DNA of 10,143 nucleotides. It comes from Candidatus Hodarchaeota archaeon (GTDB taxonomy: Archaea > Asgardarchaeota > Heimdallarchaeia > Hodarchaeales > Hodarchaeaceae). The stretch is taken from NCBI GenBank assembly GCA_029856365.1, contig JAHQWW010000132.1:1-10143 (forward strand). Direction: 5' to 3'. Under the pieces are notes generated by a model. That model ran no database searches, was not told where the DNA came from, and saw only the letters and a list, made by a program, of their open reading frames with translations. The first letter of the stretch is position 1. Every line of letters begins with the position of its first letter. Of this stretch, positions 2,461 to 3,611 are shown one piece after another. The position numbers and the translations under genes are program-made.

Positions 2461-2476
2461 GATTTAGTAACTTCTT

Positions 2477-2482
2477 GGAGGT
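2477..2482 (+). promoter_or_regulatory. Shine-Dalgarno site GGAGGT for sucC
   Basis: A perfect GGAGGT overlaps the ORF-track TTG (2475) and lies 7 nt upstream of the in-frame ATT at 2490. Confidence 0.7.
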
Positions 2483-2489
2483 ATATACA

Positions 2490-3611
2490 ATTCGTCTTCT
2501 CGAATATGAAAGTAAAGAAATTTTCAGTGATTATAACATTCCCCTTGCTGATCGTCTTGTAATCGTAAAAGGGGAAGATATCGAAGAAAAGATAAATCAA
2601 TTTAACTTCCCTGCGATAATAAAAAGTCAAATTGCAGTGGGTAGTCGAAAGAAGCGAGGTCTCATTAAAATAGCTCAAACAAGAGATGAAGCTCTTTCAA
2701 TGTGTACCGAGTTCTTTAGCAGAAAAGTTGGAGAATACGGAGTCGAAGCAATCCTTATTGAAGGACTTGCTGATATAAAACATGAATATTACTGCTCTAT
2801 TGCTCTAGATTCCTCCGGGAGACGTTTCGTTCTCATTGCGAGCGCTGAAGGAGGTATTGACATTGAGGAGGTAGCTGCCACTCGTCCAGAGGCAATAATC
2901 AAACAGAATATTTCTCTAACAGAAGGATTGAGTGAGATAGCTGCAAAAGGAGTGGCTGAAAAACTAGGTTTTTCAGGTGAAAATCTTGATTTAGCTATAG
3001 ATCTCTTCATGAAACTTTGGTGTATTACTACTGAAAAAGAAGCACAACTTGTTGAAATCAATCCTTTGGTACTTACTCCTTCAGGATTGGTTGCTGTAGA
3101 TGGAAAGATGACTTTGGATGATAATGCTGCGTTTCGTCAGGAACTTATTGTAAAATTGCGAAAACGAAAACTTACCGAATTAGAAAAGACAGCACAAAGA
3201 GTTGGTTTTTCTTTTGTTGAACTTGATGGTGAAATAGGGATTCTCGCAAATGGAGCAGGGTTAACGATGGCATTACTTGACGTTTTGGCTCAACATGGCT
3301 TAGCAGGGATGAATTTCTTGGATGTTGGTGGAGGTGCCAGTAAGGAACGGGTATATGAAGCACTCAAACTTATCTATACAATGAACCCAAAAGCTGTTTT
3401 AATCAATATTTACGGTGGCATTACTAGGTGTGATATAGTAGCAGAGGCGATACTACAGACAATGAAAGAATTTCCAAATGCTCCTCCTATGGTAATAAGA
3501 TTAACTGGAACACGAGAGGCAGAAGGTGTTGCGATACTCAAAAATGCGGGTATTGATGCTTACCAAGATATGATGGATGCGGTTGGTAAGCTTAAAGAGG
3601 TTATGTGCTAA
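2490..3611 (+). CDS. sucC: Succinyl-CoA synthetase (ADP/GDP-forming) beta subunit; proposed ATT start at 2490 (alternative TTG at 2475)
   Basis: N-terminus xRLLEYESKEIF matches the SucC consensus M(K/R)LxEYxxKxxF. Other motifs: EYYCSIALD, SAEGGIDIEEVA, LVEINPL, DGKMTLDDNAAFRQ, NGAGLTMA, NFLDVGGGA, NIYGGITRCD and IRLTGT. Confidence 0.93.
   Translation: MRLLEYESKEIFSDYNIPLADRLVIVKGEDIEEKINQFNFPAIIKSQIAVGSRKKRGLIKIAQTRDEALSMCTEFFSRKVGEYGVEAILIEGLADIKHEYYCSIALDSSGRRFVLIASAEGGIDIEEVAATRPEAIIKQNISLTEGLSEIAAKGVAEKLGFSGENLDLAIDLFMKLWCITTEKEAQLVEINPLVLTPSGLVAVDGKMTLDDNAAFRQELIVKLRKRKLTELEKTAQRVGFSFVELDGEIGILANGAGLTMALLDVLAQHGLAGMNFLDVGGGASKERVYEALKLIYTMNPKAVLINIYGGITRCDIVAEAILQTMKEFPNAPPMVIRLTGTREAEGVAILKNAGIDAYQDMMDAVGKLKEVMC

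Follow-up and report, generated by a model that had tools for sequence, protein, structure and literature searches.

The sucC gene of this contig, which encodes the beta subunit of ADP-forming succinate-CoA ligase, is probably translated from an AUU codon at position 2490 via the Shine-Dalgarno (SD) sequence in front of it, as one instance of a habit of its lineage. We assign this reading a probability of about 0.88. Its parts carry different weights: AUU 2490 is very likely the start codon of sucC, and it is fairly likely that this codon belongs to a start set that is widened in Heimdallarchaeia. Archaeal start codons are described as AUG, GUG and UUG.

The window, by which we mean the whole stretch of 10,143 nucleotides that was analysed, is contig C166 of a metagenome-assembled genome (MAG) of 4.24 Mb in 204 contigs, 84% complete and with 35% GC, from an Asgard archaeon of the Hodarchaeales type. 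Pfam profiles place an sdhB-like Fe-S protein, fumA, fumB, sucC, sucD and a CoA-transferase on the plus strand and a large FAD-oxidase/CCG protein on the minus strand. The upstream neighbour of sucC is fumB (1813..2418, plus strand), the beta subunit of class I fumarate hydratase (Pfam Fumerase_C, 5.8e-49), whose own start is an ATG preceded by AAGGAGGA. From the end of fumB to the ATT of sucC there are 71 nt, compared with 57-87 nt in most congeners, in most of which the gene order fumB-sucC is also kept. This spacer carries a T8 tract (2453..2460, plus strand) with a pyrimidine-rich CCCT-type motif before it, which may be a putative archaeal oligo-T terminator or attenuator; similar C/T-rich tracts were found in the fumB-sucC spacer of most congeners. 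A scan of the spacer for sigma-70 promoters and intrinsic terminators, which is not built for archaea, gave no match. Read from the ATT, sucC extends over 2490..3611 of the plus strand and encodes 373 amino acids, with a TAA stop at 3609-3611. Immediately 3' of this stop lies the SD of sucD, GAAGGTGG (3612..3619, plus strand), kept as GAAGGTG, GGGTGA or GGAGT in orthologs, followed by sucD itself, the alpha subunit (3624..4487, plus strand, Pfam CoA_binding and Ligase_CoA). The adjacency of sucC and sucD is kept in orthologous loci, and sucD starts with ATG here as in all 17 of the 17 orthologous loci that contain it.

The start region of sucC is compact. On the upstream side its frame is closed by an in-frame TGA (2460..2462), followed by a TTG (2475..2477), the SD GGAGGT (2477..2482), seven nucleotides (ATATACA) and the ATT (2490..2492), all on the plus strand; the codons after the ATT are CGT CTT CTC GAA TAT GAA. 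The TTG, whose final base also belongs to the SD, is the only ATG, GTG or TTG from the upstream TGA to codon +49 (a GTG) of the sucC frame. Both this layout and the position of the TTG as the lone canonical candidate near the N-terminus, overlapping the SD and without an SD of its own, had been put forward in a preliminary description of the DNA and are borne out by the sequence. The same holds for the distance of 7 nt between GGAGGT and ATT. As the 16S 3' end is unassembled in this MAG (G000), SD use was read from the spacing of ATG starts, which likewise peaks at 7 nt.

Protein comparison places the start at the same codon. SucC shows an N-terminal ATP-grasp_2 domain (PF08442, 7.6e-49) followed by a C-terminal Ligase_CoA domain (PF00549, 6.7e-20) and matches PDB chain 3ufx_B with 4.2e-70 over residues 2-366. 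When numbered from the TTG, residue 8, which is the Leu after ATT-CGT, falls on position 2 of the Pfam ATP-grasp_2 profile. Furthermore, residue 7 (R) of this form aligns with residue 2 of 3ufx_B, 1cqi_B and 1jkj_B, solved SucC chains of Thermus and E. coli, and thus the ATT occupies the exact Met1 position of SucC. The preliminary claim to this effect is upheld by the profile and by the solved chains.

For a comparison among relatives, sucC was located in 40 related genomes and its start region was read in 30 loci. In the genus set, 19 genomes with 76-100% SucC identity that are related and hence not independent samples, ATT is the start codon of 12 and ATA that of 7, and neither ATC nor a Val codon nor any other codon occurs. 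ATC makes up 22% of the Ile codons in the MAG, yet it was found in 0 of 19 cases at this position. An SD (GGAGGT, GAAGGTG or GAGGTG) lies 7 nt upstream in 19 of 19 genus members; as SD, spacing and ATT/ATA are thus found again in 18 genomes besides this one, the arrangement is no product of chance. After the start codon the sequence RLLEYE[SA]K is kept at the protein level via synonymous changes, and no protein-level conservation is seen upstream of the ATT or ATA. Four orthologs do not have any upstream canonical candidate: in L003, L004 and L010 an in-frame TAA lies two codons upstream, with ACA alone between this stop and the ATT, and in L009 there is no canonical codon from the upstream stop to the ATA. 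The pattern that would speak for the upstream codon, i.e. a conserved TTG and five-residue extension with a freely varying ATT codon, was looked for and the exact reverse was found, as ATT/ATA and the SD spacing are constant in 19 of 19 and the TTG with its extension varies. Altogether, ortholog conservation, the upstream TAA stops and the fixed SD spacing support the earlier proposal, which places the sucC start at ATT 2490 instead of TTG 2475.

Outside the genus the homologous position carries ATG. This is the case in two sister genera within the order (L019 and L021, with SD GGAGGT or GGAGGA) and in a metagenomic scaffold of 81% identity (L299), where the ATG is preceded by TTTGGAGGTTACTAAA. 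A maximum-likelihood tree shows a single change from ATG to ATH on the stem of the genus (support 100/99) and requires at least three flips between ATT and ATA inside it. The codon is thus exchanged only with start-competent codons and relatives show ATG, which is the behavior of a near-cognate start codon.

To describe such codons at the genome level, we selected SD-like sites (a stretch of 5 nt or more from AGGAGGTGA) for which no frame offered a canonical start 2-13 nt away. A codon was counted when the frame that it opened ran for 100 codons or more, with a stop at most 15 codons upstream and no canonical codon at most 15 codons downstream, and SD spacings of 6-9 nt were compared with other spacings, the class of remaining codons excluding ATC and ACG/AAG/AGG. 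In the MAG, ATT, ATA and CTG together gave 30 cases at 6-9 nt against 38 at other spacings, and the remaining codons gave 122 against 505 (OR 3.3, p=1.2e-5); for CTG alone the OR was 18.6. In the same scan the second-position near-cognates ACG, AAG and AGG were not enriched at SD spacing (OR 0.5), and the enrichment of ATC was not significant (OR 1.45, p=0.27). The excess corresponds to about 20 genes, compared with 533 canonical SD-led starts under the same criteria, from which we estimate that AUU, AUA and CUG make up about 4% (3-5%) of SD-led starts. In length, the SDs of the near-cognate candidates exceed the background and equal the SDs at ATG starts, which over the whole MAG they do not surpass (p=0.17-0.23); since an SD was required for selecting these candidates, their association with SDs is in part an ascertainment effect. 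A second scan was carried out on 1.6 Mb of a genome from another family of Heimdallarchaeia (G028) and gave an OR of 3.2 (p=0.003), with RNase HII and flavodoxin among its candidates, whose Pfam matches set in at residues 6-7 when the frames are read from ATT. The enrichment in this second genome indicates that the trait extends beyond the genus.

Individual genes could be identified by searching the MAG for GGAGGT followed 5-9 nt later by a long open frame, which yielded about 30 ATG starts plus several ATT or ATA cases without an alternative start. In the case of egsA/Fe-ADH_2 (C76:13760) the congeners show ATA eight times, ATT once and ATG once, with in-frame stops 1-5 codons upstream, the next canonical codon at +70 and position 1 of the Pfam Fe-ADH profile at residue 10. 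An alpha/beta hydrolase (C199:11296) shows ATT four times and ATG twice, with one more member having ATG one codon downstream, and carries TAG or TAA one codon upstream. An amidohydrolase (C80:17355, minus strand) shows ATA six times and ATG three times among congeners, and an Lhr-type helicase (C84:16229) shows CTG four times and TTG once, with ATG in a paralog. The ribosomal protein uL23 (C152:3649-3647, minus strand) starts with CTG in seven cases, TTG in three, GTG in one and ATG in four; in the MAG its frame is closed by a TGA five codons upstream, and GAGGTGA stands at the usual distance. The starts of the Pfam profiles confirm that the N-termini read from near-cognate codons are needed in these gene families. 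In addition, aroK (C133:10534) was recovered as a near-cognate candidate by the MAG scan. In none of the four families with ATT or ATA starts (sucC, egsA, the hydrolase and the amidohydrolase) was ATC seen as the start codon.

A stronger SD offsetting a weak codon is hinted at by ortholog pairs of egsA and of the amidohydrolase, in which poor SDs go with ATG and AGGAGGT goes with ATA. The best ATC candidate, a Mre11-like gene (C200:4620), was rejected: a conserved GTG or ATG lies five codons upstream and the codon varies between ATC, ATT, GTT and ATA. As a negative control this case shows that the method is able to reject a candidate. Further scan candidates on contigs C17 and C43 resemble a methyltransferase and EndoV.

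In the MAG, ARAGORN detected just 12-14 tRNAs, a low count that is due to most tRNAs carrying introns, so that a second initiator may have escaped detection. An unusual initiator tRNA was considered and discarded, as the only tRNA(CAU) with A1:U72 that was found is canonical (GGGG/CCCC anticodon stem, CAU anticodon) except for an intron after position 37. Similarly, a loss of aIF1 was dismissed: 13 of 15 congeners have a PF01253 match, even if none was found in this MAG, which is 84% complete. The PF01253 scores are somewhat lower in the genus, at 61-68 bits, compared with 69-84 bits in other families of the class. A hairpin sequestering the SD was also rejected: in the minimum-energy fold the SD does pair with a CCUUU tract upstream of it, but the energy of this fold is ordinary (z=0.17), and ortholog folds around the sucC start were weak and inconsistent.

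From these elements a simple mechanism can be proposed. The 30S subunit would be positioned by a perfect SD duplex of 6 nt (GGAGGU) 7 nt upstream of the AUU, and the ordinary initiator Met-tRNA would pair with the AUU despite the mismatch at the third position, so that the protein would begin with M-R-L-L-E-Y. We infer here the tRNA and the amino acid used as well as the efficiency of the start. In the same way, SD-led genes of this Hodarchaeales genus and of at least one other family of Heimdallarchaeia would make use of AUU, AUA and CUG as starts. On balance, we lean towards a start set that is systematically widened in Heimdallarchaeia, comprising a few percent of SD-led genes including uL23 and egsA, and implying a checkpoint of aIF1 and the 30S subunit that is laxer than in the studied model archaea; this lineage specificity was judged against a literature baseline for non-Asgard genomes, with the scans covering Heimdallarchaeia.

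The preliminary description had left two explanations side by side, a deliberate down-tuning of sucCD translation and a relaxed start-codon selection in the lineage. The latter has gained from at least five further gene families, uL23 among them, and from the enrichment in two families. A role specific to sucC, in which a weak codon combined with a maximal SD would keep SucC low or sensitive to aIF1, comparable to the AUU of infC, is possible but unlikely. It could draw on the observation that the non-ATG codon arose once and was held in 19 of 19 genus genomes, even though ATA to ATG is a single transition. This lack of reversion to ATG favours some selective value of the codon, as far as can be judged from the ortholog comparison. 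It could also draw on sucD being always ATG, and on egsA, the hydrolase and the amidohydrolase, which mix ATG and ATH in the same genomes. However, such tuning is not needed as an explanation when many unrelated genes share these codons, among them egsA, an essential gene of lipid synthesis, and uL23, and the close metagenomic relative has ATG. Moreover, SucC and SucD form a 1:1 complex, in which a strong under-production of the beta subunit brings no obvious gain. A point against the AUU start as such is that AUU, AUA, AUC and CUG yield only 0.02-3% of the AUG output in E. coli (10.1101/063800); if a similar output held here, an obligate heteromer with an ATG-started sucD would seem unbalanced. 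The case of uL23 implies that near-cognate starts need not mean low expression, and judging by uL23 and egsA such starts appear compatible with essential and abundant proteins. Because near-cognate starts are not peculiar to sucC, a relaxed choice of start codons throughout the lineage is favoured over tuning of sucC.

It was also considered that initiation at the ATT is carried out by ribosomes that terminate at fumB and then reinitiate, rather than by independent SD-led entry. The end of fumB 71 nt upstream and the gene order kept in most congeners would agree with such a coupling, but 57-87 nt is a long spacer for it, and the T8 tract lies within. In addition, L009, L017 and L018 do not have fumB upstream and nevertheless show the SD followed by ATA or ATT, and other genes with near-cognate starts stand in unrelated contexts. 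Coupling is therefore very unlikely.

A start at TTG 2475 would give a SucC of 378 amino acids with the extension M-E-V-Y-T, as in most automatic calls. The TTG is the sole canonical codon upstream of the conserved N-terminus, and among the best 120 public homologs, which formed our annotation survey, 26 are called in this manner as 'MEV..I' from the TTG inside the SD. Nevertheless, the TTG is preceded neither by an SD of its own nor by a purine-rich tract, and in other congeners its position (codon -5) is occupied by CTG, CAG, TAG, ATC or ATG, with the TAA of three orthologs falling inside the extension. The E-V of the extension are merely the letters of the SD, and its other two residues vary freely. 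We thus consider this start highly improbable.

A further 18 of the 120 homologs are called from the GTG of GGTG, and for orthologs that carry an upstream stop or have no TTG or GTG upstream the gene callers give forms of 303-350 residues (P0047-P0053), with up to 70 residues missing. These short forms are what could be cited for a start at a downstream canonical codon (GTG +49 here, ATG +70 in relatives) with the upstream part untranslated. Such a start is extremely unlikely, since the first 48-70 residues are kept at the protein level through synonymous substitutions and the lost part, which belongs to the ATP-grasp domain, matches solved SucC position by position from residue 2 onward, so that already the start at +49 would remove conserved ATP-grasp residues. 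Read against the ortholog alignment, public calls are evidently wrong in three ways, by a false extension of 5 or of 3 amino acids made from SD letters or by a truncation of 23-70 residues. A non-canonical start was accepted once by a pipeline: in the PGAP record P0008 (GCA_054390895.1) the sucC ortholog is annotated from the ATA directly before the ATT.

Finally, an error of assembly or sequencing at the ATT, which is one base away from ATG in a metagenome-assembled genome, or a pseudogene status of sucC in this MAG with loss of its start, has a negligible probability: ATT or ATA is kept across independently assembled MAGs (18 other genomes plus further metagenomic contigs), which rules out an assembly error, and the sucC frame is intact and under purifying selection.

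Several consequences follow if the start at AUU holds. The annotation of sucC would be corrected to the 373-residue form beginning with M-R-L-L-E-Y. Six gene families and two genome-scale scans indicate a class of Asgard archaea that would also accept AUU, AUA and CUG behind an SD, and in such genes standard gene callers misplace the N-termini of proteins. Structure predictions, phylogenies and expression constructs based on Asgard MAGs may therefore contain truncated or extended N-termini, of which AtubA (PMC13394414) has already provided one example, and, if the widened set is real, many Asgard proteins in databases, eukaryotic signature proteins included, would have wrong N-termini. It would also become possible to test how start-codon stringency evolved in those archaea that are nearest to eukaryotes.

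Regarding known systems, the best described AUU starts are those of E. coli, where to our knowledge infC and pcnB are the only confirmed genes of this kind. The AUU of infC is an autoregulatory sensor for IF3, the fidelity factor that infC itself encodes. As in sucC, the AUU of infC and pcnB stands on an SD-led mRNA and is kept among relatives, and the four best near-cognates of E. coli (AUU, AUA, AUC and CUG) include the three that are enriched here. The difference lies in number and role: instead of two confirmed genes and a sensor of IF3, we find a TCA-cycle enzyme, aIF1 as the fidelity factor and apparently dozens of unrelated genes. A feedback of the infC type was not found for sucC, as SucC is a metabolic enzyme and aIF1 is encoded elsewhere in the congeners.

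Canonical archaea resemble the present case in SD-led initiation, in the spacing optimum of ATG type, in a canonical initiator tRNA and in the presence of aIF1, here found in the congeners. The aIF1 of Sulfolobus solfataricus discriminates against AUU mRNA in vitro (PMC4705826, PMC6237735), which speaks against the AUU start proposed here. The codon set appears wider here (AUU, AUA and CUG), whereas the Sulfolobus factor excludes AUU in vitro (PMC4705826). A precedent from the same archaeal class is AtubA of Kariarchaeaceae, also Heimdallarchaeia, for which a probable 'rare ATT start codon' was noted: an ATT located before the annotated start gives back the conserved N-terminus and has a likely RBS at a plausible distance (PMC13394414). 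A literature search for a systematic account of non-canonical starts in Asgard archaea returned the AtubA remark only. AtubA is a single-gene remark that arose from construct building, whereas in the case of sucC the codon is backed by its conservation in orthologs, by stops upstream of it and by ATG in its place in relatives.

Among known archaea, the Asgard lineage stands nearest to eukaryotes, with Hodarchaeales placed closest. Like the system proposed here, eukaryotes use a machinery of Met-tRNAi, eIF2/aIF2 and eIF1/aIF1 type that tolerates a single mismatch at the start codon. However, eukaryotic near-cognate starts (CUG, AUU, AUA and others) are reached by scanning, depend on Kozak context and include ACG, whereas in the archaeon the SD stands at a fixed 7 nt and ACG, AAG and AGG are not among the enriched codons.

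Near-cognate start codons (ATT, ATA or CTG behind a Shine-Dalgarno sequence, SD) were found in the studied MAG in genes other than sucC. Four such starts have the SD 7 nt upstream and are matched by ATG or TTG at the equivalent codon in congeners: egsA with ATA (contig C76:13760, plus strand; extracted locus L111:301), an alpha/beta hydrolase with ATT (C199:11296, plus strand; L113:301), an amidohydrolase with ATA (C80:17355, minus strand; L112:1421) and an Lhr-type helicase with CTG (C84:16229, plus strand; L177:301).

In the case of the ribosomal protein uL23, a CTG start (C152:3649-3647, minus strand; L314) is indicated by the SD and by congener comparison. 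This CTG lies 7 nt downstream of GAGGTGA, an in-frame TGA stands five codons upstream, and no ATG, GTG or TTG occurs between the two. Among the congeners the start position is occupied by CTG in 7, ATG in 4, TTG in 3 and GTG in 1. The SD scan of the MAG also gave candidate starts in a metallophosphoesterase (CTG, C21:10121; L179), where residue 3 corresponds to Pfam position 2, in a GHMP/shikimate kinase (ATT, C133:10534; L180) and in an EAP30/Vps36-like ESCRT-II protein (ATT, C94:29724; L114), whose sole canonical alternative is an ATG within the SD; additional candidates lie on C17 and C43.

Pfam alignment also points to near-cognate initiation in G028, a genome from another family of Heimdallarchaeia. 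Here, RNase HII (contig C1, L284:10275-10937, plus strand) and a flavodoxin (C1, L248:13582-14139, minus strand) require ATT starts: when ATT-started, residue 6-7 falls on Pfam position 1, and starting at the first canonical codon, 15-26 codons further in, would lose the catalytic or FMN-binding motifs. As a separate observation, the sucC ortholog of G026 (L027), also from another family of the class, has ATA at a codon that is TTG or ATG in its relatives. A GTG also lies in frame, three codons 5' of this ATA, and both are candidate starts.

Regarding the initiation machinery, the initiator tRNA(CAU) gene of the MAG (C33, minus strand, about 25,700-25,830 in reverse-strand coordinates) encodes A1:U72 and a G-C-rich anticodon stem, with an intron of ~18 nt following position 37. 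ARAGORN counted only 12-14 tRNAs in the entire MAG, presumably because most tRNA genes bear introns. A search of the whole MAG (84% complete) found no start-codon fidelity factor aIF1 (PF01253). Of the 15 congeners, 13 have aIF1, with bit scores (61-68) below those of the other families searched (69-84).

Deposited SucC orthologs of the clade (P0047-P0049, P0050-P0051, P0053 with 303 aa, P0055 and P0057) are short by 23-70 residues, since no canonical start was available to gene callers, and in others 3-5 residues of translated SD form a false extension. Finally, in the fumB-sucC spacer (2440-2462) a CCCTACC motif is accompanied by a T8 tract, and C/T-rich tracts recur there in most congeners. 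Within this spacer the element pairs weakly with the SD and its predicted fold is not significant; a role as archaeal oligo-T terminator or as attenuator between fumAB and sucCD is possible.
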